Positions 50,188-61,434 of a stretch of 64,000 nucleotides of DNA are shown here, piece after piece. A program made the position numbers and the translations under genes. The stretch's first letter is position 1; the number at the start of each line of letters is the position of its first letter. The DNA is from Acidimicrobiia bacterium (lineage in GTDB: Bacteria > Actinomycetota > Acidimicrobiia > Acidimicrobiales > Bin134). Location: the NCBI GenBank assembly GCA_022819825.1, contig JAJEGM010000028.1:1838-65837 (forward strand), read 5' to 3'. The notes beneath the pieces are model-generated. The model had not been told where the DNA came from. It saw only the letters and a program-made list of their open reading frames with translations, and ran no database searches.

Positions 50188-51900
50188 CTACTGGTACGAC
50201 ACGAACGCCGGGTAGGGGGAGAGCGCCAGCACCTGCTCGGCGGTCGGGGTGGGGATGTCCTCGTCGTAGAAGTTCTTCCAGCCCCAATGGAATTGGTCGG
50301 CATCGAACTCCCTGGTCAAGACATTCCAGGTGTTGTACTTGGAAGTCAGCGGACCTTGGCCGTCCATCTGGATCAACACCGCCAGCTCTGGAGGAGTTTC
50401 GATCTGGTGGCGGTTGGAGATCATGTCCAGCCGGAACTGGTGGACGATCAGAAGCTTCTGAGGCAGCGCCTCTTCCCTAACGATCCCGGCTAGCCACTGC
50501 ACAACCCGGTTGATCTCTGCGGCATCGACGGTGCCTATCTGCTCTAGGTGGACCTGGTGGGGTTTGAGCCTCCACTCGGGGTCGAGAGCCAGGCCGACAT
50601 GGGGCAGGCGGAGGAACTCCTCGTAGTACCTGGCCTGGGCGAGGAAGTCGGTTCGCCCTGGTTGGAGGTCCAGCACTACATACATGTCGTTGGCCGCCGC
50701 AGTCTCGATCCAGGGTCTGATCACATCCCGAGCGGTCTCAGCCGAATAGTCGCCGTCGCTGCCGGCACCCGCCGAGGCGACGGTGGCGATTATCTCGAAG
50801 GTGGGCAGCACCACCGAGCCATCGGCGTCGTAGCCCTCGGAAATGGATCGGAGGCGCTCCACGCCTTCCTCAGCGCTTTGCTCCCCCAGCACCCCGAGGG
50901 CCGACCCCGACGGATGGCCGTAGATGGCCACCAGGCGGCGGTCGAAACCCGCATCGAACATGAGCAGCCCACCACCAGGCAGTTCATCACCCCGGCGGAT
51001 TACCTCCATCTGCCAGCGGGCATCCCCGCCGAACTCCTCTAAGAATAATGCCCAATCGGGGGCGCTGGAGATCGCGTTGCGAATCTCCGGGGACATGGCT
51101 CGGAGGTCGCCGGACACGATGAACACCTCAGCTCCGACTTGGTGGCCGAGGGCTGCCAACGGCACGCCCTCCTCGGCATTCTCAACGAGCCACACGGGGC
51201 CATCGGACAGCCCTTCTGAGGAAAAGGTGGCCTGCTGATCAACCGCAATCTGTTCGAAAGCGAAGTCAGACAGGGCATATCGAAGGACCGGGGCGTCGAA
51301 TCCGGCTGTCACGACCAGCTCCGGAGCAAGACGCCCAAGCTCACCCATCAATTGGAGATCAAACCAAGGAGCAACCAGCAGCAGGGGGCCTCGAATCCCG
51401 CGCGACATCAGCGTGGAAATCGCCGCAGGATCGTCAGCGAACGCCAGACCCACCTCGTGGGCGCATTCGTATATGACTTTCGATATCTCAATACTGGTCA
51501 CCGCAAGAGCTCTGGGGGATAAGAGACGATGGCCGGCATCGGCAGCCGAAGGAGGGTCAAACGAATCAAGCAGTGGCGTCGTCACGGGGGATATCTGGAG
51601 ATCGTCGGGGATCACTGGCGAGCAGTCGCGCTCAGGCTCAGCAGGCACCGCGGTTGCGGTGGGCTCAGGAGACGGCGTGGGTTCGGGAGTAGCGGCGGGC
51701 TCAGCGGTCGCAGTGGGCTCTGGTGGCGGCATCGGCCCGGCAGACGGCGTGGCGGATGCAGCGGGGGTGGGGTTCGATTGGGAGGGTGTTGGCATCACAA
51801 CAGCACCTTTTGGCTGAGAATCTGACACCACCGCCGAGCTTTCAGAGCAGGACGACGCCAGCAGCAAGACGGCCAAGAAAACAACGAATCTACCGGGCAA
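50188..51900 (-). CDS. secreted lipoprotein with Pro/Thr/Ala-rich linker and a C-terminal domain of unknown function (possibly glycoside-hydrolase-like)
   Basis: Signal plus Cys (VLLLASSC), a PTPSQSNPTPAASATPS..PEPTATAEPAATPEPTPSPEPTATA linker, and a conserved-looking C-terminus ..YVVLDLQPGRTDFL..GLALDPEW..LLIVHQF... TTG start at 51900. Confidence 0.6.
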   Translation of the reverse strand: MPGRFVVFLAVLLLASSCSESSAVVSDSQPKGAVVMPTPSQSNPTPAASATPSAGPMPPPEPTATAEPAATPEPTPSPEPTATAVPAEPERDCSPVIPDDLQISPVTTPLLDSFDPPSAADAGHRLLSPRALAVTSIEISKVIYECAHEVGLAFADDPAAISTLMSRGIRGPLLLVAPWFDLQLMGELGRLAPELVVTAGFDAPVLRYALSDFAFEQIAVDQQATFSSEGLSDGPVWLVENAEEGVPLAALGHQVGAEVFIVSGDLRAMSPEIRNAISSAPDWALFLEEFGGDARWQMEVIRRGDELPGGGLLMFDAGFDRRLVAIYGHPSGSALGVLGEQSAEEGVERLRSISEGYDADGSVVLPTFEIIATVASAGAGSDGDYSAETARDVIRPWIETAAANDMYVVLDLQPGRTDFLAQARYYEEFLRLPHVGLALDPEWRLKPHQVHLEQIGTVDAAEINRVVQWLAGIVREEALPQKLLIVHQFRLDMISNRHQIETPPELAVLIQMDGQGPLTSKYNTWNVLTREFDADQFHWGWKNFYDEDIPTPTAEQVLALSPYPAFVSYQ

Positions 51901-51968: not shown

Positions 51969-52613
51969 TTACCTCTGTTCAGCCCACCATTTATCGAGCC
52001 TTGCCTCGGTGTCGGCCCGGTCCAACTCGGGCTCGGCCCGCTTCAGCTCCAAAAGGAACTTGAGCGCCGCGCCCACTTCGGGGCCAGGACCGATGCCGTA
52101 GCGCTCCATCACCTCGTTGCCGTCGATCAGCGGACGCTCGGCGGCCCGGCGCTCCTCCTCGGCCAGTCGGGCGATTCGGGCCTCCAAATCGTCCACGTGG
52201 TGCTGGAGATCGGCGGCCTTTTGGCGATTCCGGGTGGTGCAGTCGGCCCTCACCAACTCGTTGAGATAGCCCAGCAGGGATCCGGCCTCCCGGGCATAAC
52301 GGCGAACGGCAGCGTCGCTCCAACCGTCGGCGTAGCCCTTGAACCGGCCCGACAGGCGCACCAGTTCGCTCACGTCGTCCACCACATCCTCGGGATAGCC
52401 CAACTGGGTGAGCCGCTTGCGGGTCATCCGGGCCCCCACCGCCTCGTGGTGGTAGAAGGTGACCGTCCCCCGCTCATAAGAGCGGGTGCGGGGCTTGCCC
52501 ACGTCGTGGAACAGGGTGGCCAGCCGCAGAACCAGATCAGCCCGGGTCTTGGCCACAACCGCGATGGTGTGGGCCAGCACGTCCTTGTGGCGGTGGATCG
52601 GGTCTTGCTCCAA
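51969..52613 (-). CDS. cca: HD-domain protein equal to the C-terminal half of an actinobacterial CCA-adding enzyme. The nucleotidyltransferase head is absent, so it may be a pseudogene.
   Basis: ..EQDPIHRHKDV.. ..LFHDVGKP.. ..FYHHEAVGARM.. ..LVRADCTTRN.. match the PcnA/CCA C-terminus. Family-like sequence (..LVDSGLADEIVPELPALR) continues upstream in frame to about 52733 without any ATG, GTG or TTG, and it abuts the rpmG stop. Confidence 0.65.
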   Translation of the reverse strand: MEQDPIHRHKDVLAHTIAVVAKTRADLVLRLATLFHDVGKPRTRSYERGTVTFYHHEAVGARMTRKRLTQLGYPEDVVDDVSELVRLSGRFKGYADGWSDAAVRRYAREAGSLLGYLNELVRADCTTRNRQKAADLQHHVDDLEARIARLAEEERRAAERPLIDGNEVMERYGIGPGPEVGAALKFLLELKRAEPELDRADTEARLDKWWAEQR

Positions 52614-52744
52614 ACGGAGCGCGGGAAGTTCGGGAACGATCTCGTCGGCGAGGCCGGAGTCAACCAGATGCCACAGCGGCGGGGCAGGGTCTTCAGCCAG
52701 CAGCGCGGCTGTCAGGAGCTCCCTGCGCTCGTCGACGTTGGTGG

Positions 52745-52906
52745 CTACCGCTCCTCCTTGAACACAACGTGCTTGCGAGCCACCGGGTCGTACTTCTTCA
52801 GCTCGATCCGCTCCCGGTCGTTGATGCGGTTCTTGGTGGTCACGTAGGTGTAGCCGGTGCCCGCAGTGGACTTCAGCTTGATGATGGGGCGCTTGTCACT
52901 AGCCAT
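52745..52906 (-). CDS. rpmG: 50S ribosomal protein L33
   Basis: Not in the ORF track because it is under 60 aa. I translated [53 protein letters not shown], which is full-length L33 of the Cys-less type. Confidence 0.92.
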
Positions 52907-52968
52907 GGCTCAGAACTTCTCCAGATTCGACTGTGGCAATTGGCCGCTCTTTTGGATAGCCATCGCAA

Positions 52969-53205
52969 TCAGAACTTCTCCCCGCGCTGGCGCATTTGGG
53001 CCACCACTTTGTCGATGCCGTGCTTGTTGATGGTCTTGAGGCCTTTGGCCGACACGTTGAGGGTGATCCACCGCTTCTCCGACGGCACCCAGAAGCGGTG
53101 CTTGTGGACGTTCGGGTTCCACCGGCGCCGCGTCTTGCGGTGCGAGTGGGACACGTTATTGCCGAACGACGGGCGACGACCGGTCACCTGGCAGACCTTG
53201 GACAT
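52969..53205 (-). CDS. rpmB: 50S ribosomal protein L28
   Basis: [34 protein letters not shown].. is the canonical L28 N-terminus. The track ORF is over-extended by 25 codons. Confidence 0.92.
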
Positions 53206-53312
53206 AGGGAACCATGTTACCGGCCCCGCCACCGGCACCGGCAAGCGGATAGCCGCAGACGCGCCCAATCTCGACAACAATCTCTGTTAGCAGGCGGGAT
53301 AGGGTCGCCGCC

Positions 53313-54335
53313 ATGAAACTCGGACTGGTCTGGGGATATTGGAGCCGCGGGATGCCCGAGGGCTTCGTGCCGCTCACCCAGGAGGCAGAGCGGCTCGGCT
53401 ACGACTCGGTGTGGACGGCCGAATCGTGGGGCTCCGATGCCTTCTCTCCGCTGGTGTGGCTGGCCGCCCACACCGAGCGCATCCGCCTGGGCACCGGCAT
53501 CGTGCAACTGGCCGCCCGCACCCCCACCGCCACCGCAATGCATGCGGTGACCGCCGACCACCTGTCCAACCAGCGCCTCATCTTGGGACTGGGCGTGTCC
53601 GGCCCCCAAGTGGTGGAGGGGTGGTACGGCCAGCCCGGCAACCGCCCACTGGCCCGCACCCGGGAATACGTGGAGATCCTGCGGCGGGTGTTCGCCCGAG
53701 ACGGTTATCTCACGTTCGAGGGCGACTACTACAACCATCCCTACAAGGGGGAGGGCGACACCGGGCTGGGCAAGCCGCTCAAGATCATGACCCATCCCCC
53801 CCGGGCCGACATCCCCATCTTCATCGGCGCCGAAGGCCCCAAGAACGTCGCCCAGACGGTGGAGATCGCCGACGGCTGGCTGCCGCTGTACTACTCCCCG
53901 TTCCGCCCCGAGGTGTACGCCGAGTCGATCGCGGGGCGCTCCGACGACTTCGAGATCACCGTCCACACCACCATCAAGGTCACCGGCGACTCCGACGAGG
54001 AGTTGGCCGAGGCGCTGTTCCCCACCAAGGCCTCGCTGGGCTTCTACATCGGGGGGATGGGGGCCAAGGGCCAGAACTACCACACCAAGCTCATGGCCCG
54101 GATGGGCTTCGAGGAGGAGGCCCATCACATCCAAGACCTGTTCTTCGAAGGTCGCCGGGAGGAGGCCATCGCCGCAGTGCCCGACCAATTCGCCGATGAG
54201 ATCTCCCTGGTGGGATCGCCGGAGCGGATCCGCGACCGACTGGCGGCCTGGAGAGAGAGCCCGGTAACCGGCATCAACGTGGGGGCCCGAAGCGCTGAGG
54301 AACTGCGCACAATCGCCGAGGTCATCCTCGGTTAG
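53313..54335 (+). CDS. LLM-class (luciferase-like) F420-dependent oxidoreductase
   Basis: MKLGLVWGYW.. ..GYDSVWTAESWGSDAFSPL.. ..IRLGTGIVQLAARTP.. ..LGLGVSGPQVVEGWYG.. matches the TIGR03559-like LLM family pattern. Confidence 0.88.
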   Translation: MKLGLVWGYWSRGMPEGFVPLTQEAERLGYDSVWTAESWGSDAFSPLVWLAAHTERIRLGTGIVQLAARTPTATAMHAVTADHLSNQRLILGLGVSGPQVVEGWYGQPGNRPLARTREYVEILRRVFARDGYLTFEGDYYNHPYKGEGDTGLGKPLKIMTHPPRADIPIFIGAEGPKNVAQTVEIADGWLPLYYSPFRPEVYAESIAGRSDDFEITVHTTIKVTGDSDEELAEALFPTKASLGFYIGGMGAKGQNYHTKLMARMGFEEEAHHIQDLFFEGRREEAIAAVPDQFADEISLVGSPERIRDRLAAWRESPVTGINVGARSAEELRTIAEVILG

Positions 54336-54358
54336 CCCAAGACTGGAATAATGACCCC

Positions 54359-55000
54359 ATGACTGAGCCAATCACCTTTTACTTCGACCCGCTTTGACCA
54401 TGGTGCTGGCAGACAGCCCGTTGGGTTCGTCAGATCGAAGACACCGGTGAGGTGAGCGTCACCTGGGGTCTGTTCTCGTTGGCCATCGTCAACTTCGACA
54501 AGCCCATGGACGAGTTCGACCCCGACCGGGGCGCGGGGGTGCGCTCGCTGCGCACCGCGGTGAAGGCCCGCGAGGTGGGCGGCAACGACGGCATCGGCGC
54601 CTACTACCAGGCCATCGGCCACCGGGTGTTCGACTTGGTGGAGTCGGTGGACGAGCTCGACACCATCCGGGCCGCCGCGGTGGACGCCGGTTTCGACGCC
54701 AGCCTGGTGGACGACGCTCTGGCCGACGACAGCACCTGGGAAACGCTGAAGTCCGAGCACACCATCTTGTGCGACGAGACCCGCAGCTTCGGCGTGCCCA
54801 CCATCCGCCTCGACGGCGGCCAAGGCCCGGCCCTGTTCGGCCCGGTGATCAGCAACCCGGCCGAGACCACCGAAGAGGCGGTGGAGCTATGGCGCCATGT
54901 GCGCTGGCTAACTGCCTACGACAACTTCGCCGAGCTCAAGCGCGACCGCCTGCCGCCCGATCTGGAGGCCTACAAGCGAAGGTATGGCGACGACGGCTGA
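54359..55000 (+). CDS. DsbA-like / Rv2466c-like thiol oxidoreductase with in-frame TGA (54395-54397) at the first position of the CPWC motif. Candidate selenoprotein (UPWC).
   Basis: From ATG 54359 the frame reads MTEPITFYFDPL-TGA-PWCWQTARWVRQIE..SLAIVN..FGVPTIRLDG..ALFGPVIS..FAELKR. It is collinear with the CPWC mycothiol-dependent reductase family over its whole length. The track only reports the part from GTG 54452. Confidence 0.65.
54412..54431 (+). promoter_or_regulatory. candidate bacterial SECIS hairpin
   Basis: GACAGCCC-GUU-GGGUUCGUC: 8 bp with one bulged C. The apical loop begins with G, 23 nt after the UGA. An alternative fold, CUGGC.GAC/GUU.GUCAG, uses the same region. Confidence 0.35.
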
Positions 55001-55490
55001 CGCTGTCGCCGAATCGACTGCCCCCCAATCCGGGGCGCATCGGCCCCTGTGGCGTCGGCGGGGCGCCCGGTGGTTTGCCGCCGCGGTGGTGGTCGCCCAA
55101 CTCGCGCTGGTGGCCAACGGCTACCGGGATGCGCACAACTACTTCGCCTTCCAGCCGTTCAATGAGTCGAGCACCTACGCGATGGAGCTGGTACGGGTGT
55201 TGGACGACGGCCAGCGAGTGCCGGTGCCCAACGGCCGCTGGGAGGGCTACGACTGGAACGAGCTGATCGATTGGGGGCCGCTGCGGTCCCCCTGGCACCA
55301 GCGCCACGCCTTCTCCGGGATAGACGCGGTGGTGGACTTCTTGGACCACGCCCTGGACTGGATGGCCGACAACACCCCCGGTGACACCGAAACCCGCTAT
55401 TGGGAGGCCACCGTCACCTACTACCGCAACGCCCGCGGCCCCCATGTCACGGTGATCCGCAGCCACGACCGGGAAGTGGGCGACCCATGA
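54984..55490 (+). CDS. single-pass membrane-anchored protein of unknown function
   Basis: 168-aa ORF. RRRGARW followed by FAAAVVVAQLALVANGY (TM), then a soluble domain. It overlaps the upstream gene by 17 nt, and its stop forms an ATGA overlap with the HTTM start. Confidence 0.6.
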   Translation: MATTADAVAESTAPQSGAHRPLWRRRGARWFAAAVVVAQLALVANGYRDAHNYFAFQPFNESSTYAMELVRVLDDGQRVPVPNGRWEGYDWNELIDWGPLRSPWHQRHAFSGIDAVVDFLDHALDWMADNTPGDTETRYWEATVTYYRNARGPHVTVIRSHDREVGDP

Positions 55491-56566
55491 CGGCCACGGT
55501 TTCTTCGGCTTCGGACACCCAATGGCGGGACCAGTTCCGCCGCTGGCTGGACGAGGTGTTCTACGAACCGGCCAGCGTGCGGGGGGCAGCAGTGCTGCGC
55601 ATCGTGCTGGGTCCGTGCGTGATCTGGCACCTGCGGCCGTTTCTGGCCGACGCGCTGGATGGCATCACCTACCACGACCGCTTCCAGCAGCCGTGGTGGG
55701 CGTGGTATCCCAATGCGCCCGAAGGGCTGTACGTAGCGCTGCTGTGGATCGGAGTGGCCGCCGCCGTGCTGATGACCGTGGGCTGGTGGTCGCGCATCGC
55801 CACTGGGTCCGCCTTCGCGGTGGTGGCCTACAACCTCTTCTTGTCGCAGACCCACTTCCACCACAACCGGGCGTTCCTGGTGATCCTTTTGGCCGGGGTG
55901 GCCCTGTGCGACAACGGCCGGGCGCTGTCGCTGGACGCCCTTCGCCGACCTCCGCCCGATGACCGGGCCTTGGTGTGGCCGATATGGCTGCTTCGGTTCG
56001 AGGCTGCCGCCGTCTATTTCGCCTCGGGGTTCTCCAAGCTGATCGACCCTGACTGGGTGGGCGGCCGGGTGCTCCACGACCGCTCTGTCCGCTACCAGAA
56101 CGAGGTGCGCGACGCCATAGGCGACACGCTGGCCGACCCGGTGCTGGAGGTGGTGACTGCTCGGGCGTTCCACTGGGTGCTGTCGCCCGCCGCGGTGGCC
56201 ACCGAGCTGTTCATCGCCTTCGGTCTTTGGTTCCGCCGCACCCGGCTGGTGGCGGTATGGGTGGCGGTGGCCTTCCACGTGGGCATCGAGGTGACCTCCC
56301 ACGTGCAGGTGTTCAGCGTGATCGGCATCGGCGCTTTGGCCCTGTGGGCGGTTCCGTCTACCCGCGACCGCACCCTGGTCACTCCCAGCCGCTGGGTGGG
56401 GTGGCTGGACTGGATGGCCCGGTTCGACATCACCGTGGCGCCAGGGGCATCGTGGTGCATGGTGGATCGCGACGGCACGGTGCTGGAAGGGCGAGAGGCC
56501 CGGCAGTTCGTGCGGACCCGGTTGCCGGCCGCCTTCCTGTTCTCCCGGTTCTGGCGGTACCGGTGA
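55487..56566 (+). CDS. HTTM-domain membrane protein (vitamin K-dependent gamma-carboxylase-like)
   Basis: ..FRRWLDEVFYEPASVRGAAVLRIVLGPCVIWHL.. ..FLSQTHFHHNRAFLVILLAGVAL.. ..FASGFSKL.. are HTTM hallmark blocks. ATG 55487 is chosen (ATGA overlap). Confidence 0.8.
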   Translation: MTATVSSASDTQWRDQFRRWLDEVFYEPASVRGAAVLRIVLGPCVIWHLRPFLADALDGITYHDRFQQPWWAWYPNAPEGLYVALLWIGVAAAVLMTVGWWSRIATGSAFAVVAYNLFLSQTHFHHNRAFLVILLAGVALCDNGRALSLDALRRPPPDDRALVWPIWLLRFEAAAVYFASGFSKLIDPDWVGGRVLHDRSVRYQNEVRDAIGDTLADPVLEVVTARAFHWVLSPAAVATELFIAFGLWFRRTRLVAVWVAVAFHVGIEVTSHVQVFSVIGIGALALWAVPSTRDRTLVTPSRWVGWLDWMARFDITVAPGASWCMVDRDGTVLEGREARQFVRTRLPAAFLFSRFWRYR

Positions 56567-57747
56567 GCGCTCTGACGTCTGTTCGACGGATTTGGTCTTG
56601 TCGAGCCTCGCGTCGGCTCATCGCCTGGGCGGTGGTGTGGGTGTTGCTAGCCGGTCTGCTGCGGACCACGCTGGCCGCACCCGAGGTGTGCCCGCAATAT
56701 TCCCCCGGCGACGGCCAACCAGCCATCGACGCCGGGGCCGACTGGATCGTCCGCACCCAGGAGCCCAGCGGGCGGTACCTGTACGAGTACGACCGGCGCA
56801 CCGAGTCGGCAGTGCCGGGTTACAACCTGGTCCGCCACGCCGGGGGCACCATGTCGCTCTACCAGTTGGCAATCGCGCAGGAGGGCCAAAACCACCAGGT
56901 AGTGGAGGCCGCCGACCGGGGCATGAACTACCTGCTGGAGCGGGCGGTGGACACCGGCAATGGGGGTATGGGGCCGGCGCTGTCGCCCCGAGGGCCGGTG
57001 AAGACGGGGACGGCTTCGCTGACACTGGTGTCGCTGGCCCATCGGCGCATCCTCACCGGCGACCCTCGCTACGACGGCGAGATGCGGGCGCTGGGCCGGT
57101 TCCTGATGGGCCAGCAGCTGCCCGACGGGGGGATGCTCAACTTCTGGGATCCCAAGACAGGCGCACCGGTGCCCGGGGAGCGGTCTCGGTTCGCCACCGG
57201 GGAGGCCGCCTGGGGTCTGGCCCTGATGCACGAGGCTTTCCCCGGCGAGGGCTGGGACGCCCCGGTGTGGGCCATCATGGACTACCTGTCCACCGAGCGC
57301 GACGAGCTGGAAGAGCTGTGGCCCCCGCCATGGCCCGATCAGTGGGCGGCCTACACCCTGGGCGAGATGGCCGAGTGGGGCTTGGAAGACCACCACCTGG
57401 AATACGCCCAGCGCTTGGCCGGGCGATTCGGCCAGATGATCCGCTGGGACGCTCAGCGGGAGGGTGTGGCCGAGCTCTCCCACCTGCCCATGCCCCGCGG
57501 CGGCGGCTACGGGACCATCCTGGAGGGCCTAGGCGCGCTGGAGTGGCTGTGGCTCAACGAGCCCCGGCTCGCCGAAGCTCCGCTACGGGATCGTCTGGAG
57601 TGCGGGGCGGCCCGCCTGGCCGAAGCCCAAGCCACCGACGGCGCTTGGTACTACGACGACCTAACCAGGGTGGACGACCAGCAGCACGCCGTCTCGGGCC
57701 TGTTGCTGGCCGACGTCAGTTTCAACCTCGGAGGAAACAAGCCATGA
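56563..57747 (+). CDS. alpha/alpha-toroid repeat protein (prenyltransferase / squalene-cyclase-like) with N-terminal anchor
   Basis: Three Q-x2,3-(D/S)G(G/A/R) repeats: IVRTQEPSGRY, LMGQQLPDGGM and LAEAQATDGAWYY. N-terminal hydrophobic segment LIAWAVVWVLLAGLL. GTG 56563 forms a GTGA overlap with the HTTM stop. Confidence 0.55.
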   Translation: MSALTSVRRIWSCRASRRLIAWAVVWVLLAGLLRTTLAAPEVCPQYSPGDGQPAIDAGADWIVRTQEPSGRYLYEYDRRTESAVPGYNLVRHAGGTMSLYQLAIAQEGQNHQVVEAADRGMNYLLERAVDTGNGGMGPALSPRGPVKTGTASLTLVSLAHRRILTGDPRYDGEMRALGRFLMGQQLPDGGMLNFWDPKTGAPVPGERSRFATGEAAWGLALMHEAFPGEGWDAPVWAIMDYLSTERDELEELWPPPWPDQWAAYTLGEMAEWGLEDHHLEYAQRLAGRFGQMIRWDAQREGVAELSHLPMPRGGGYGTILEGLGALEWLWLNEPRLAEAPLRDRLECGAARLAEAQATDGAWYYDDLTRVDDQQHAVSGLLLADVSFNLGGNKP

Positions 57748-57760
57748 AGGAAGTGAGACC

Positions 57761-58312
57761 ATGAGTGGGCTCGGACCGGTGATGTTGATGGTGCTGGCCG
57801 CGGCCAACCCGGCCGCAGGCGCACTGAGCCTGGCCTGGCGGCCATCGAACAGGGATCAGTGGCGCCCCCGAGTGGCGCTGGCCGTCGCCGCCGCGGTGGG
57901 CGCGCTATGGGTGATCGCCGCGCTGGCCGACCCCATCCTCGACGGCCTGTCGGTGACGACAGGAACCTGGCGCTTGGCCACCGCGGTGCCCTTCGCAGTG
58001 GCCGGACTCCGCTGGATGTTATGGCCCGCCCGTCCCATCCACGACGAACCGCGAGCCGGTACCCAAGTGGCGCTCATCGCCCTCACCGTGTTGTTCACCC
58101 CCCAACTGGTCGCCGTGGTCCTGGCCACCGCCGCCCACGACGGCACCCTACGCACCATGGCCGGCGTAGTCCTCGCCGCCGCCCTCACCGCCGCCCTCCT
58201 CTGGTTCCGAGCCACCCCCACCCCCCTGCTATCAGTGATCGCCCGCCTCCTGGGCGGCATCGCCATAGTCCTAGCCATAGCCCTAGGAGTAGACGGCACC
58301 CAAACCATCTGA
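57761..58312 (+). CDS. multi-pass membrane protein (weak MarC/UPF0056-like N-terminal NP motif)
   Basis: 183-aa ORF with about 5-6 hydrophobic segments, lying 13 nt after the preceding gene. The family assignment is weak. Confidence 0.55.
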   Translation: MSGLGPVMLMVLAAANPAAGALSLAWRPSNRDQWRPRVALAVAAAVGALWVIAALADPILDGLSVTTGTWRLATAVPFAVAGLRWMLWPARPIHDEPRAGTQVALIALTVLFTPQLVAVVLATAAHDGTLRTMAGVVLAAALTAALLWFRATPTPLLSVIARLLGGIAIVLAIALGVDGTQTI

Positions 58313-58514
58313 ACGGCTCGTCCGACACTGGTTTGCCCAGTTCACAGTAATCCTAGAATCTCCGCTGCCAAACCCGTTCGTGTGTAGACAGCCTCGTTCT
58401 AGATATTTATTTCCACAGTCTCTGCTCAACTAACAGCAAGGTCTGGGGCTGAGAACCGGATACGGCTCTAGTGGTGCGACTGACGTAAGCCGTCGCTCCG
58501 CGTATCTTCTTCAG

Positions 58515-58715
58515 TCATTGCGTCCCTCTTTCGCCTTCGTCTTCCAAGTTCTCGGTACCGCGGCGGGTATAGGGGCGGCGCGCACCTCCTGACGGCGCAT
58601 CGGGCTTCGGTATGTGACTCTCCTGGGTTTCCGCATGGTCCTCTCCGAGGATGCCTCCGAGAATTCGGTTGATCAACTCCCTGATCTTCGTGCCGTTGGC
58701 GGGCATGATTCTCAT
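58515..58715 (-). CDS. small hypothetical protein
   Basis: 66-aa ORF directly downstream of the membrane-protein gene. No recognisable family, and it may not be coding. Confidence 0.2.
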   Translation of the reverse strand: MRIMPANGTKIRELINRILGGILGEDHAETQESHIPKPDAPSGGARRPYTRRGTENLEDEGERGTQ

Positions 58716-58742
58716 CGGGGCTCTACCTCGGACTGCCTGCGT

Positions 58743-59210
58743 TCAAGGTTGGACTGCCCGGCGTTGTCGCAGCCTGAGCCTCCCAAGGCCCAGCAGAGTC
58801 CCCAGAAGGCCTGCCGCGAATACGGGGCCAACCCGACTCAGAACCGTTACAGGGGTCACATGCGTCCAGATGACCACCGCCGTCAAACAAAGCCCAATCA
58901 CAATCCCGCCGCAAATCGGCATTGCCCAGAGGCGCAATGCTCTGGGCGGTTCAGCCTGGGCCATGATTTCGCGCGTGAAGCGTCTGTTGTAGATCACGCA
59001 GAACACCGCTCCCAGGAGGACGCTCCCCAACCCCAGTACAGCGAGAGCCCCTGCGCGCTCGTCGTCCGACGCGTTGGCTGCGAGCGCGAACCACAGTATT
59101 GCGAATCCCATAGAGATAGCGGTAAGCCATGCCATCGACTTGCTGGTGTGGTTCTTGGCCACCTTGCGGGCAGAACCAGGCGGGAGCGTCTCAAGAGATT
59201 CCACTGTCAC
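58743..59210 (-). CDS. hypothetical membrane protein
   Basis: 155-aa ORF with four hydrophobic segments in an AT-richer segment. No family recognised. Confidence 0.5.
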   Translation of the reverse strand: MTVESLETLPPGSARKVAKNHTSKSMAWLTAISMGFAILWFALAANASDDERAGALAVLGLGSVLLGAVFCVIYNRRFTREIMAQAEPPRALRLWAMPICGGIVIGLCLTAVVIWTHVTPVTVLSRVGPVFAAGLLGTLLGLGRLRLRQRRAVQP

Positions 59211-59232
59211 TCTACGCTAGCTTCAGCGGCGG

Positions 59233-59358
59233 TCACGATGCCTTCCTGTCCATCTTCTCCACATGCATATGACTCTCAAACCGCAACTGAATCCGCTCGG
59301 CCAGGTCGGGGGCCTGCTCTTCAAACTGCCCCCAAGTGACCGCAGTCGAATCGCTCAC
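59233..59358 (-). pseudogene. N-terminal remnant of a pyridoxamine 5'-phosphate oxidase-family gene
   Basis: ..VTWGQFEEQAPDLAERIQLRFESH.. resembles the first roughly 35 residues of PNPOx-like proteins. It then diverges and stops, where full-length family members run about 150 aa. Confidence 0.3.
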
Positions 59359-59427
59359 CGGTGCCACACTAGATGGAGCTACCCTCAAGACCAGTACAAG
59401 CTGGTGGCGTGAAATCAACAATAAGAA

Positions 59428-59459
59428 TTGATATTTACTGATATATCAGTAAATATCAA
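59428..59459. promoter_or_regulatory. 32-bp perfect palindrome (candidate hicAB operator/promoter)
   Basis: TTGATATTTACTGATATATCAGTAAATATCAA equals its own reverse complement. Only 6 of 32 positions are G/C, and it ends 4 nt before the hicA GTG. Confidence 0.6.
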
Positions 59460-59463
59460 CAAC

Positions 59464-59667
59464 GTGAAGAGGGTGGACCTCTTGAAGGAACTCAGGCGCA
59501 TCGCGCAAAGCAAAGCGCTTATTCTTGAGTTGCGGCGCAAGGGCGCCAAACACGAGGTCTGGCGCTTGGGCAACACGACACTGACGATCCCCCGACACAG
59601 GGAGATTTCTCGGTTCACTGCCGAAGGGCTGATAAAGGACGCGAAGGAGGAACCGCCTTGTCGATAG
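59464..59667 (+). CDS. hicA: HicA-family toxin
   Basis: (M)KRVDLLKELRRIA..LRRKGAKHEVWRLGN..LTIPRHREISRFTAEGLIKDA matches the HicA/YcfA pattern (K-x-H-x3-..-PRH-x-EI). GTG 59464 is chosen because the track's TTG 59428 lies inside the palindrome. Confidence 0.7.
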   Translation: MKRVDLLKELRRIAQSKALILELRRKGAKHEVWRLGNTTLTIPRHREISRFTAEGLIKDAKEEPPCR

Positions 59668-59894
59668 CACACGGGACTGACGCCCAGCCCTTGGTGGGCG
59701 ACACCCACCACCTCACCGTCTTCCGCAGCGGCAGATGGTGGGCAATCAAGGCCGACAACCTGCCCGGCTGCCACTCACAGGCCAGACGCCGCGCCAAGAT
59801 CGAGGTAACCGCCCGCGATGCCATCGCCTTGTGGTTTGACGCCGACAAAGCTGAAGTAGGCCCCCTAGTCGTTAACTTCGCAAACCCAGACTGA
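59658..59894 (+). CDS. hicB: HicB-family antitoxin
   Basis: ..HHLTVFRSGRWWAIKADNLPGCHSQARRRAKIEVTARDAIALWFD.. is the typical HicB N-terminal domain pattern. It overlaps hicA by 10 nt. Confidence 0.7.
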   Translation: MSIAHGTDAQPLVGDTHHLTVFRSGRWWAIKADNLPGCHSQARRRAKIEVTARDAIALWFDADKAEVGPLVVNFANPD

Positions 59895-59900
59895 CCTAGC

Positions 59901-59982: not shown

Positions 59983-61434
59983 ATGAGGGTTGGGTGTGTG
60001 CTGGTGACCCATTTGAGGGCGAAGGTGGAGATGGGGCGGCATGGACATCTGAAGGACAGCCCTGTGTTGATTGTCGATGGCAATGCGTCGAAGTCGAGGG
60101 CTCTCATCGTCGATCGCTTCCCCGCGGCCTGTGAGGTGAGGGAGGGCATGAGCTTGGCGGAGGCGATAACCCACCACGCGGACGCTGTCGTGCTGGATGC
60201 CGACGAGCCTTACTATCGCCAGGTTTTTGCCCGCGTGCTGGCCGCCTTGCAGGAAGTCAGCGACCGTGTGGAGGGGGCTGATCTGGGTATGGCCTACGTC
60301 CGATTGGATGGACTGGAGGGGCTCTACGGCGATGAAGAGGGCGCGGTCTCCGCGCTATTGGACGCGGTCCCCGCTTTTCTGAGCCCCCGCGTCGGGGTGG
60401 CAGACGCCAAGTTCCCCGCCTTCGTTGCCGCCCGGGCGCGCTCGGGTCCGGGCGCCTCCCAGGTCGACGACGATGTGGGGGCCTTCCTCGCCCCGCACAG
60501 CATCGACCTGCTTCCGGTCTCGGCCAGCGCGAGAAGCGAAATGCACCGCTTCGGCCTGCACACCATGGGTGCCGTCGCCTCGATGAGCAGACATGTGCTG
60601 GCCGACAGGTTCGGTCCCGAGGGCCAGCGGGCGTGGTCGCTGTGCCACGGCATCGACGACACCCCCGTGGTGCCCCTGGCCTCCGAGGAACCGGTGGTGG
60701 AGCGCATCTCGCTGTCTCTGCACTCCTCCTCCATCGAGGCCCTGCTGGTGGCGGTGGACGCCCTTCTGCGACGGGCATTCACACGGCCCGAGGTGAAGGG
60801 CCGGCACGCCGGGGTGGCACATCTGCTGGGCGCGGCGCCGGGCTGGCCGACGTGGGAGCGAAGTGTCCGGTTCAAGCAGCCCGTCGACGCGTGGGAGAGG
60901 GCCGCCGAAATCGTCCGGAGCCGGTTGGAGGCCGACCCGCCGTCCCATCCCGTCGAGGACGTGACGCTCACCCTGGCGGACTTCACCGGCCAGTCGATCG
61001 CTCAGCTGGCGCTGCTGAAGGACGCTCGGCGCGACCGGCTTCAGCGGCTCGTCGATGCCGATCGCAGGCTGCGGCCGCTGATGGGAGGCAGGCATGCCCT
61101 GTACCGAATCGCCGGCGTCGCACCCTGGCACCCCGTCCCGGAGATGCGATTCCTCCAGACGCCCATCGATCCGTCGGGACTAGACACCATCAGGCCATTG
61201 CTGGCCCCGAACCCCGTGGACGTGCGCGAGGACGCGGCGGGCGAGCCGCGGTCAGTTTGTGCGGACAGGCACTGGATGGAGGTGGTCCGCATCGACGACC
61301 GGTGGACAATCGACCTGTGGTGGCTTCCCAAGCCCATCACCCGCTCCTACTACCGGATCGATCCCGGCGACGGCAGGCTGATCACCCTGTTCCGAGACTG
61401 CGTTGACCACCGCTGGTACCGACAAAGCGCCTGA
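59983..61434 (+). CDS. imuB: ImuB-like Y-family DNA polymerase (mutasome accessory subunit)
   Basis: ..CVLVTHLRAKVE.. ..VLIVDG.. ..GMSLAEA.. ..ADLGMAYVRLDGLEGLYG.. Y-family palm/fingers layout, lying immediately upstream of dnaE2. Confidence 0.8.
   Translation: MRVGCVLVTHLRAKVEMGRHGHLKDSPVLIVDGNASKSRALIVDRFPAACEVREGMSLAEAITHHADAVVLDADEPYYRQVFARVLAALQEVSDRVEGADLGMAYVRLDGLEGLYGDEEGAVSALLDAVPAFLSPRVGVADAKFPAFVAARARSGPGASQVDDDVGAFLAPHSIDLLPVSASARSEMHRFGLHTMGAVASMSRHVLADRFGPEGQRAWSLCHGIDDTPVVPLASEEPVVERISLSLHSSSIEALLVAVDALLRRAFTRPEVKGRHAGVAHLLGAAPGWPTWERSVRFKQPVDAWERAAEIVRSRLEADPPSHPVEDVTLTLADFTGQSIAQLALLKDARRDRLQRLVDADRRLRPLMGGRHALYRIAGVAPWHPVPEMRFLQTPIDPSGLDTIRPLLAPNPVDVREDAAGEPRSVCADRHWMEVVRIDDRWTIDLWWLPKPITRSYYRIDPGDGRLITLFRDCVDHRWYRQSA

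Follow-up and report, generated by a model that had tools for sequence, protein, structure and literature searches.

A conserved HTTM module of two gene pairs and a lineage-specific, probable selenocysteine reductase in one acidimicrobial locus

When six genes of one direction lie end to end, do they encode a single machine or several? We address this question for a locus of an Acidimicrobiia bacterium (assembly GCA_022819825.1, contig JAJEGM010000028.1), within a stretch of 64,000 nucleotides hereafter called the window. A sequence-only reading had described six tightly spaced genes at 53313-58312 (+ strand) and proposed that they form a self-contained membrane quinone/thiol redox or lipid-modification module. 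The layout is matched exactly by the open reading frame and junction coordinates: a gene for an LLM-class F420-dependent oxidoreductase (53313-54335) is followed, after a 23-nt gap, by one for an Rv2466c-like DsbA-fold thiol reductase (54359-55000), which in the window overlaps by 17 nt the gene for a 168-aa single-pass protein of an unnamed family (54984-55490). An ATGA overlap (55487-55490) leads to the gene for a 359-aa HTTM multi-pass membrane protein (55487-56566), a GTGA overlap (56563-56566) to that for a 394-aa signal-anchored toroid protein (56563-57747), and a 13-nt gap with an AGGAAG motif to that for a 183-aa divergent MarC-family (UPF0056) multi-pass membrane protein (57761-58312). 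TGA is a genuine stop codon in all four downstream genes.

The two upstream genes encode soluble enzymes. The LLM protein scores 417.8 bits with TIGR03559 (F420_Rv3520c), whose cutoff is 335, and also matches PF00296 (E 1.4e-66); no transmembrane segment or signal peptide is predicted, placing it in the cytoplasm. The thiol reductase matches PF22234 (E 3e-27) and, by phmmer, the PDB entries 4zil, 4nxi, and 5xur (E about 2e-26), in which the U of its U-P-W-C active site aligns with the first Cys of CPWC. Its active site is residue 13, the translation around the in-frame TGA (54395-54397) being MTEPITFYFDPL*PWCW; since neither a signal peptide nor a transmembrane segment is predicted, this protein too should be cytoplasmic.

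Is the TGA read as selenocysteine? It occurs at the identical codon in 34 orthologous loci beyond the window (32 genome loci from different species and two metagenome loci), with the protein sequence conserved on both sides; one further orthologue (L035) has TGC, encoding Cys, in its place. A SECIS-like hairpin of 12 base pairs with the apical loop GCAGA (54396-54427) begins within the UGA codon—over 14 distinct sequences, 98.8% of the cells in its stem are paired, a share that falls to 18-57% once the 3' partners are shifted. Three substitutions in these sequences are one-sided and preserve pairing through wobble, and none is a double compensatory change; the fold z-score of the larger surrounding region does not reach significance. 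The 11 codons after the TGA have a GC3 of 0.55, compared with 0.90 elsewhere in the gene (P about 0.003), and the Cys orthologue retains the hairpin only in degraded form. The TGA is very probably a selenocysteine codon and the protein a probable cytoplasmic selenoprotein; the proposed UxxC (UPWC) DsbA-like reductase is thus upheld by PF22234, the PDB alignment, and TGA conservation.

Rv2466c-type proteins are known as mycothiol-dependent soluble reductases, not as quinone-epoxide reductases. The window protein shares fold and family (PF22234) with the mycothiol-dependent Rv2466c of M. tuberculosis, but carries a probable Sec where the CPWC motif of the latter has its nucleophilic first Cys. 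In 2005, DsbA-like selenoproteins with a UxxC motif were described from the Sargasso Sea, the marine family being placed in COG2761 (PMC1088965); the window reductase has the same UxxC and is of the Rv2466c-like subfamily. Its host belongs to an acidimicrobial sponge-symbiont lineage, unlike the hosts of either Rv2466c or the marine proteins.

Whether the upstream genes belong with the HTTM gene can be judged from two comparisons, one seeded with the HTTM protein (83 genome loci) and one with the toroid (33 loci). The Rv2466c-like gene adjoins HTTM in 33 of the 83 loci, all in the Candidatus Poriferisocius clade and all with an HTTM identity of at least 63%; no other locus, whether from Acidimicrobiia, Thermoleophilia, or a more distant group, has it within +/-8 kb, and some 50 further loci possess the same four downstream genes without it. 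A subclade (L004-L033, L087, L088) alone carries the LLM gene; L002, L034, and L035 lack it and keep the reductase gene. Within the clade the flanking rpmB and HD-domain genes are equally well conserved, which points to ordinary synteny. The spacing between reductase and partner genes also varies, from the 17-nt overlap of the window to a 40-nt gap in L002. Hence the six-gene operon of the sequence-only reading stands as a module for its four downstream genes only: the adjacency of the Sec-CxxC reductase and HTTM does not extend beyond one clade, and the proposed link of the F420 enzyme to HTTM is not supported. The 17-nt overlap also occurs in many close relatives, and there, as in the window, it could reflect real coupling; there is no convincing terminator between the two genes.

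The HTTM assignment itself is secure, with a match to PF05090 over residues 26-287 (E 2.5e-23; 83.4 bits, cutoff 27.7), and in a search of the PDB with the family profile the vitamin K-dependent gamma-carboxylase GGCX, to whose membrane domain the protein is related, is the only match (E 1e-5). The motif ASGFSKLIDPDW aligns with GVKKL-DADW of GGCX, and the invariant residues K184, W190, and N127 correspond to the catalytic K218, W223, and N159; the position of H160 is held by an invariant Arg (Arg128). The roles of the catalytic Lys, stacking Trp, and Asn have been described for GGCX, and an active site of this type sits on the extracytoplasmic side, at the membrane interface (PMC12647623); the same, lumen-equivalent location is expected for the window protein. 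However, GGCX has 758 residues, with its HTTM profile match ending near residue 228 (full-length chain numbering), whereas the window protein lacks the lumenal clamp domains and the C-terminal domain and has a separate small single-pass partner.

The gene for this small anchored partner lies directly upstream of HTTM in 83/83 HTTM-seeded loci, and the pair is also found, at 25-30% identity, where the surrounding genes are unrelated (L084-L086). From its positively charged N-terminus and single transmembrane helix, the partner is predicted to be N-in, C-out; the AlphaFold2 model (pLDDT 84) has the helix at residues 22-48, then an alpha/beta domain, with the motif F-x-F-Q-x-F-x-E-S just past the helix. 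The family is rare (227 representatives among 1.84 billion proteins), and the 53 members scanned match no Pfam family and show no detectable similarity to DUF5819 or SdpA. Neither similarity to the GGCX lumenal domain nor a PDB fold match was found for the partner, and no DCC1-like domain is detectable.

These placements bear on the proposal that the quinone or quinone epoxide used by HTTM is recharged by the Sec-CxxC reductase, perhaps with supply from the F420 enzyme, while the toroid binds the isoprenoid, completing a self-contained vitamin K-type cycle. Conservation of the catalytic Lys makes epoxide formation plausible, the six genes share one direction, with the overlap and lack of a convincing terminator already described, the reductase-HTTM arrangement has been kept throughout those 33 loci, and a lipid-soluble quinone could in principle reach an enzyme at the cytoplasmic face. 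Giant viruses offer a parallel—VKOR with a gamma-carboxylase-like epoxidase-desaturase, a proposed vitamin-K redox system for lipid modification—in which the HTTM-type protein keeps K218, lacks the carboxylase region, and adjoins a CxxC redox enzyme (PMC13486548). However, the viral CxxC enzyme is a membrane VKOR on the same side as HTTM, whereas that of the window is a soluble DsbA-fold protein predicted in the cytoplasm, in a separate compartment from the extracytoplasmic HTTM active face, and of a family that reduces by way of mycothiol. Reductase-HTTM adjacency is moreover confined to one clade with equally syntenic flanks, variable spacing, and many reductase-free modules elsewhere. Comparative evidence gives the quinone/thiol module no support, and we regard such a cycle as very unlikely.

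What, then, is the toroid? The protein has no Pfam match, but its AlphaFold2 model (pLDDT 91.9) is an (alpha/alpha)6 toroid, and Foldseek places it at TM scores of 0.5-0.62 to MmpH, GH76, AGE/YihS isomerases, and class II terpene cyclases. Repeats of the Q-x-x-D-G type known from terpene cyclases are present (QLPDGG, QATDGA, and the related QEPSG), SQHop_cyclase_C is weakly matched by 6 of 30 homologues, and the match to drimenyl-PP synthase is weak (E 0.16); in place of the cyclase DxDD motif, however, the sequence has R-V-D-D-Q-Q-H. The alpha/alpha-toroid fold is therefore confirmed and the isoprenoid binding attached to it is not, terpene cyclases being one of several equally good structural matches, sugar-acting enzymes among them. 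The fold is common to class II terpene cyclases and other six-hairpin enzymes (MstE, small SHC, drimenyl-PP synthase, MmpH, GH76, AGE/YihS), but the toroid family of the module differs in being signal-anchored and extracytoplasmic, and in always standing beside, or being fused to, a MarC-type membrane protein. A positive N-terminus followed by one transmembrane helix predicts an N-in, C-out anchor; Cys43 and Cys347 are invariant, and a P-E-x-C-P motif (invariant Glu41 and Cys43) lies a few residues outside the membrane anchor.

In an iterative profile search the gene after the toroid is MarC-like in all 69 testable genome loci and in 41 of the 42 testable metagenome loci, and in eight Thermoleophilia loci the two are fused. 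Homologues of the window protein score above the 23.9-bit gathering threshold that Pfam sets for MarC (L003, 25.8; L122, 33.3).

At about 50-55% protein identity, the four downstream genes are found again in unchanged order and with their 4-nt overlaps, which is not expected by chance. The toroid follows HTTM in 74/83 loci, and the close, recurrent linkage of HTTM to the anchored, toroid, and multi-pass proteins is borne out. Could the two pairs nonetheless be functionally unrelated neighbours, held together by inherited synteny and operon compaction? Each is found alone: in about half of the toroid-seeded loci (16-19/33) no HTTM gene adjoins toroid-MarC, L097 keeps L001-type flanks with only an HTTM remnant beside toroid-MarC, and nine of the 83 HTTM-seeded loci, like the distant L084-L086, have the HTTM pair but no toroid. 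The two pairs can thus work apart. However, HTTM-toroid adjacency spans Acidimicrobiia and Thermoleophilia at 40-55% identity with stop/start overlaps kept, and a second, distantly related HTTM subfamily (PF05090 E 6e-16), with its own, different small anchored protein, adjoins toroid-MarC divergently in seven metagenome loci. Such an association, independent and with another gene order, is hard to reconcile with inherited synteny, and we consider unrelated neighbours unlikely.

A small-protein gene directly upstream of HTTM is a recurring bacterial theme, seen in DUF5819 plus HTTM, in B. subtilis SdpA/SdpB, and in MloH of malonomycin biosynthesis; a 2026 preprint predicts that DUF5819 and HTTM together mimic whole GGCX and MloH. 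In the window too, the aromatic motif conserved in the partner comes just past its transmembrane helix. The window differs in lacking a toxin precursor and an NRPS/PKS context, and in its added toroid-MarC pair. The toroid might instead be the client of an SdpAB-like maturation, modified at P-E-x-C-P, rather than an enzyme: small protein, HTTM, and exported protein parallel the order of sdpABC, HTTM weakly matches the SdpB model TIGR04033 (E 7e-6), and Glu41 and Cys43 would sit at the interface where the GGCX active site lies. That SdpB match, however, reaches only 25.9 bits, far below the cutoff of 178, the partner does not resemble SdpA, P-E-x-C is also kept in toroids without an adjacent HTTM (e.g., L090, L092, L107), and the constant pairing with MarC suggests that the toroid has a function of its own; a client role seems quite unlikely.

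We therefore lean, with slightly better than even confidence, towards a composite locus: a conserved HTTM module (54984-58312) and, upstream, lineage-specific cytoplasmic redox genes (53313-55000). The latter, LLM and Sec reductase, are placed there only in the Candidatus Poriferisocius lineage, where they are probably co-transcribed; as far as sequence comparison can tell, they are recent neighbours outside the conserved machine. The HTTM module, previously undescribed, comprises two gene pairs, each obligate, that are linked through stop/start overlaps; neither a substrate nor a precursor peptide nor a Gla-type target could be found for it. All its soluble domains, like the HTTM active face, are predicted outside the cytoplasmic membrane. 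By homology to GGCX and MloH, HTTM and its partner would bind menaquinol in the outer leaflet, where Lys184 would deprotonate it; reaction with O2 would yield a very strong base able to abstract a proton from an anionic substrate, with the invariant Asn127-Arg128 placed where GGCX binds the Glu carboxylate. The outcome may be carboxylation or a related modification—carboxylation as such being uncertain given the His160 replacement and the absence of the CO2-pocket and lumenal regions. The membrane-tethered toroid, coupled or fused to its MarC-type protein, would most likely hold, process, or deliver the substrate.

Six co-directional genes were confirmed in the window from the ORF list and the sequence, and the overlaps and annotations given to them by the sequence-only reading proved right when ORFs, sequence, and profile searches were compared. 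On the forward strand, an LLM gene (53313-54335) is followed after a 23-nt gap by an Rv2466c-like reading frame (54359-55000) with one in-frame TGA at 54395-54397 (MTEPITFYFDPL*PWCW). A 17-nt overlap with this frame leads into the gene of a 168-aa partner (54984-55490), an ATGA overlap into the gene of a 359-aa HTTM protein (55487-56566), and a GTGA overlap into that of a 394-aa toroid protein (56563-57747); a 183-aa MarC-like gene (57761-58312) follows after a 13-nt gap that carries an AGGAAG motif. Because rpmB (ribosomal protein L28; 52969-53280, reverse strand) is divergent from the LLM gene, the run begins at a short divergent intergenic region; a promoter and terminator scan of 52600-59000 showed no difference from shuffled sequence. 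Best-match names place the organism in the Acidimicrobiia, in the sponge-associated lineage Candidatus Poriferisocius.

Directly 3' of the run, 58313-59900 has a lower G+C content (about 58-62%, against 66-70% around it) and holds a HicA-toxin-like ORF (59428-59667; PF07927, E 2e-4, below the cutoff) adjoined by a 78-aa ORF—this stretch is perhaps a small toxin-antitoxin insertion. Beyond it, at 59983-61434, lies the gene of a 483-aa protein with an N-terminal impB/mucB/samB domain (Y-family polymerase, ImuB-like; PF00817, E 1e-11). On the other side, 50188-51900 (reverse strand) encodes a 570-aa protein without a Pfam family that begins like a lipoprotein and contains a linker rich in Pro, Thr, Ala, and Glu; the GC3 of this gene (0.73) is below that of its neighbours, and the comparison locus L002 has an orthologue of about the same size in the corresponding place.

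The HTTM protein matches PF05090 (E 2.5e-23, 83.4 bits against a cutoff of 27.7), with residues 26-287 spanning profile positions 1-254 of 259. When a profile of 21 members of the HTTM family was searched against the PDB, vitamin K-dependent carboxylase was the sole match (E 1e-5), and the invariant S-K-L-I-D-P-D-W of the 21 sequences was aligned on K-K-L-D-A-D-W of the vertebrate gamma-carboxylase GGCX. From this alignment, the catalytic base Lys218, the stacking Trp223, and Asn159 of GGCX have invariant counterparts in K184, W190, and N127; the roles of these residues in GGCX, whose active site lies at the lumenal membrane interface, have been described (PMC12647623). The two proteins differ, however, at His160 of GGCX, a position held by an invariant Arg in the window HTTM family, and the lumenal clamp and carboxylase region of GGCX (about 374-418, Y395, F299 CO2 pocket) is absent, the window protein ending at residue 359. 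The PDB profile alignment extends over just the initial part of the membrane domain of GGCX, and in a search for equivalents of GGCX D263/N290, a profile built on the second half of the window family's HTTM domain matched nothing in the PDB. Since nothing beyond the membrane domain is present, the window protein is classified by its sequence as an HTTM enzyme but not as a GGCX orthologue. A DCC1-like (DUF393) domain lacking CxxC, suspected by eye in the last 70 residues, was dropped; no Pfam match to it was found in C-terminal segments or in five other HTTM proteins.

The 168-aa partner is predicted from sequence topology and structure modelling to be an N-in protein with a single TM helix and an alpha/beta domain. 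Its family is unnamed and has 227 representatives among 1.84 billion proteins; no Pfam family was found for the 53 members scanned. Membership in DUF5819 or SdpA was rejected on this basis (20 close members, E up to 10, and 33 distant members, E up to 1), and the idea that the partner is a piece of the GGCX lumenal domain was discarded after a Foldseek search against the PDB returned nothing below E 0.02 and no GGCX match. Pairing of a small protein with an HTTM protein is a bacterial theme already known, for example from SdpAB, and the 168-aa partner is analogous to DUF5819/SdpA-type partners in gene position and in its TM-plus-domain architecture, though not in sequence membership. A maturation system of the SdpAB type, acting on the toroid as its client, would be in keeping with this analogy; the window HTTM protein itself scores only 25.9 bits against the SdpB family cutoff of 178.4 (TIGR04033) and is not a member, and we regard such a system as distinctly unlikely.

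A neighbourhood test seeded on HTTM genes had been proposed by the sequence-only reading, and the set used here comprised 83 loci, of which 80 came from genome contigs, with each species represented once, and three from contigs reached through protein look-up. A small anchored gene lies directly upstream of HTTM in all 83 loci, and a toroid gene lies downstream in 74 of them; a MarC-like gene stands 3' of the toroid in every locus whose contig is long enough (69/69). The two redox genes are restricted to one lineage. The Rv2466c-like gene occurs only in the comparison loci L002 and L004-L035, which are Poriferisocius-type genomes with HTTM proteins at least 63% identical, and the LLM gene only in L004-L033. 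In L002, L034, and L035 no LLM gene intervenes: the rpmB intergenic region runs straight into the Rv2466c-like gene. Within the Poriferisocius-type clade rpmB, rpmG, an HD-domain gene, and other flanks are equally conserved, so that the adjacency of reductase and HTTM carries no more weight than ordinary synteny. Near other HTTM loci, thioredoxin-type genes are sporadic rather than conserved (AhpC/Redoxin in L001; a glutaredoxin-like ORF in L059). A search for further conserved neighbours of the module turned up only genes whose synteny is confined to particular lineages, namely alpha-amylase, MFS, a tRNA-synthetase-like gene and, in Thermoleophilia, a 260-aa membrane protein. The last of these, a conserved protein of about 260 aa without a Pfam family, may adjoin the module on either side (L049:6710-7501, L059:10915-11697, and five other Thermoleophilia loci).

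The partner and HTTM genes also hold together outside this set; among partner relatives at 25-30% identity, found in quite different contexts, an HTTM gene is still immediately downstream, and no toroid or thioredoxin-like gene was found near these loci. Seeding on the toroid instead gave a reverse set of 76 metagenome loci, in which a MarC-like gene stands 3' of the toroid in 41 of the 42 testable cases and an HTTM gene adjoins it in only 16-19 of the 33 loci whose upstream sequence spans 2.5 kb or more. The toroid-seeded locus L097 has the same flanks as L001—alpha-amylase upstream, a tRNA-synthetase-like gene downstream—and is without the partner-HTTM pair, which suggests that the pair was lost. 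A short HTTM-like remnant (L097:4717-5013, E 6e-6) was seen between the alpha-amylase gene and the toroid. Seven other toroid-seeded loci carry a second HTTM subfamily, less than 30% identical to the window HTTM (PF05090 E 6e-16 and 9e-11), with a different small anchored protein upstream and transcription divergent from the toroid-MarC pair. These loci are L117:3506-5004, L118:485-1944, L121, L123, L128, L135, and L140; their small anchored protein is unrelated to the window partner and has the motif DSFPLSTYPMF.

The organisation is modular: partner-HTTM and toroid-MarC are two obligate pairs, each able to stand alone. Such independence is compatible with the two pairs being unrelated neighbours; however, the pairs have repeatedly come to lie side by side, in two different gene orders and with HTTM proteins of two subfamilies. 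This speaks for a functional link, if not for an obligatory one, and we consider unrelated neighbours an unlikely explanation.

In the 394-aa protein, Arg residues precede a single TM helix at the N-terminus; Cys43 and Cys347 are invariant, and just beyond the anchor is a P-E-x-C-P motif. The AlphaFold2 model of the protein is an (alpha/alpha)6 toroid (pLDDT 91.9), which Foldseek matches at probability 1.0 to numerous proteins of the (alpha/alpha)6 fold, MstE and a small SHC among them. Matches with TM scores of 0.5-0.62 comprise methylmannose-polysaccharide hydrolase, GH76 mannanases, AGE/YihS isomerases, AprG, and class II terpene cyclases (MstE, small SHC, drimenyl-PP synthase). Six of 30 toroid homologues weakly match SQHop_cyclase_C (PF13243; best E 1e-5), and a toroid profile reaches drimenyl-PP synthase in the PDB at E 0.16; the window protein itself has no Pfam match and lacks the DxDD catalytic motif, with RVDDQQH present. 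The toroid fold proposed earlier is therefore upheld by AlphaFold2 and Foldseek, but a specific isoprenoid function is not, given the absent DxDD, the weak profile matches, and the mixed Foldseek set.

By sequence, the 183-aa protein appears to be a divergent member of MarC/UPF0056, although the window protein has no PF01914 match of its own. Orthologues in L003 (25.8 bits) and L122 (33.3 bits) exceed the cutoff of 23.9, others reach 20-21 bits, and an iterative profile search links the MarC orthologues to the window protein. In eight Thermoleophilia/Solirubrobacterales loci the toroid and the MarC-like domain form one reading frame, of 594 aa in L059; the window MarC-like protein was tied to this fusion by Pfam and iterative profile searches, its BLASTP comparison with the fusion being not significant. 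The fusions, of about 600 aa, are in L051, L055, L059 (9134-10918), L063, L067, L069, L070, and L076.

Beside the module, the LLM gene product belongs to TIGR03559 (F420-dependent, Rv3520c subfamily; 417.8 bits against a cutoff of 335), and the Rv2466c-like reductase matches PF22234 (E 3e-27, 96.3 bits against a cutoff of 27), both as first annotated. The U-P-W-C of the reductase aligns with C-P-W-C of PDB 4zil, the TGA standing at the first Cys of CPWC (Rv2466c; PDB 4zil, 4nxi, 5xur). This TGA is kept in 34 loci beyond the window (32 genome and two metagenome), with the protein sequence conserved on both sides, and TGC (Cys) replaces it in the L035 orthologue (L035:6752-7408, Ca. Poriferisocius sp., OZ244918.1), which occupies the corresponding place before the HTTM module. 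TGA is also the normal stop of neighbouring genes. It is very probable, from these comparisons, that the in-frame UGA encodes Sec. The window-type and L035 reductases form a natural Sec/Cys orthologue pair.

A conserved 12-bp hairpin with a G-containing apical loop, a candidate SECIS element, begins inside the UGA (54396-54427). Over 14 distinct sequences, pairing holds in 98.8% of cells; all three variable positions switch only between Watson-Crick and wobble pairs, with no double compensatory change. GC3 in the 11 codons after the TGA is 0.55, against 0.90 in the rest of the gene, and the hairpin is degraded in the L035 Cys orthologue; the fold z-score of the region is -0.46. In bacterial SECIS elements, the loop is typically farther from the UGA than in this hairpin. 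Searches of the window for selenocysteine machinery found no tRNA, Rfam family, or SelB-type GTPase motif, and no other convincing in-frame-TGA candidate was found there. Marine metagenomes yielded DsbA-like UxxC selenoproteins as early as 2005 (PMC1088965), and the reductase is a new member of a selenoprotein kind already known.

The sequence-only reading had joined reductase, F420 enzyme, and HTTM protein in a self-contained membrane quinone/thiol redox or lipid-modification module. Neither gene-neighbourhood conservation nor predicted topology supports it. The reductase, with its active site at residue 13, and the LLM protein have no predicted hydrophobic segment, and both are predicted to be cytoplasmic; in the partner and the toroid a single TM helix comes after a basic N-terminus, which would put their domains outside, and the HTTM active site is expected, from homology to GGCX, at the outer membrane interface. 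The CxxC protein and the HTTM active face are thus predicted to lie in incompatible compartments. A lipid-soluble quinone could in principle cross between leaflets, a caveat to this argument; even so, a thiol/quinone cycle of this kind seems very unlikely.

For the four-gene module (54984-58312), the HTTM protein and its partner may activate menaquinol with O2 to give a strong base, as in GGCX and in MloH of malonomycin biosynthesis, with an anionic substrate held close to Asn127-Arg128. That substrate would be supplied or processed by the toroid, either tethered to the MarC-type membrane protein or fused with it. A more far-reaching reading makes the module an undescribed menaquinol- and oxygen-dependent 'strong-base' modification system at the outer face of the actinobacterial membrane, for which the sponge-symbiont lineage would have recruited a cytoplasmic Sec DsbA-fold reductase, perhaps F420-fed, to re-reduce the menaquinone epoxide or quinone from the module in a VKOR-independent bacterial vitamin-K cycle; this further scheme, taken as a whole, is a long shot, and we give it very little credence.

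Among HTTM proteins, the animal carboxylase, MloH (malonomycin synthesis), and SdpB, defined genetically, are the known cases. We found no description in the literature of a recurrent coupling of HTTM to the toroid-MarC pair; DUF5819-HTTM pairs are the subject of a 2026 preprint. The original finding is partly supported, and a testable variant of HTTM systems remains. A tempting, weakly founded link between HTTM and a selenoprotein thiol reductase is removed, and the reductase gene itself stands as a well-supported new selenoprotein member. What is left is a compact, recurrent four-component module, with an obligate partner family, an HTTM protein with its catalytic Lys intact, an outward toroid, and a MarC-type protein sometimes fused to that toroid. 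The poorly understood MarC/UPF0056 family is thereby tied to a defined extracytoplasmic partner, and the module in Acidimicrobiia and Thermoleophilia offers concrete partners for tests of substrate and chemistry.
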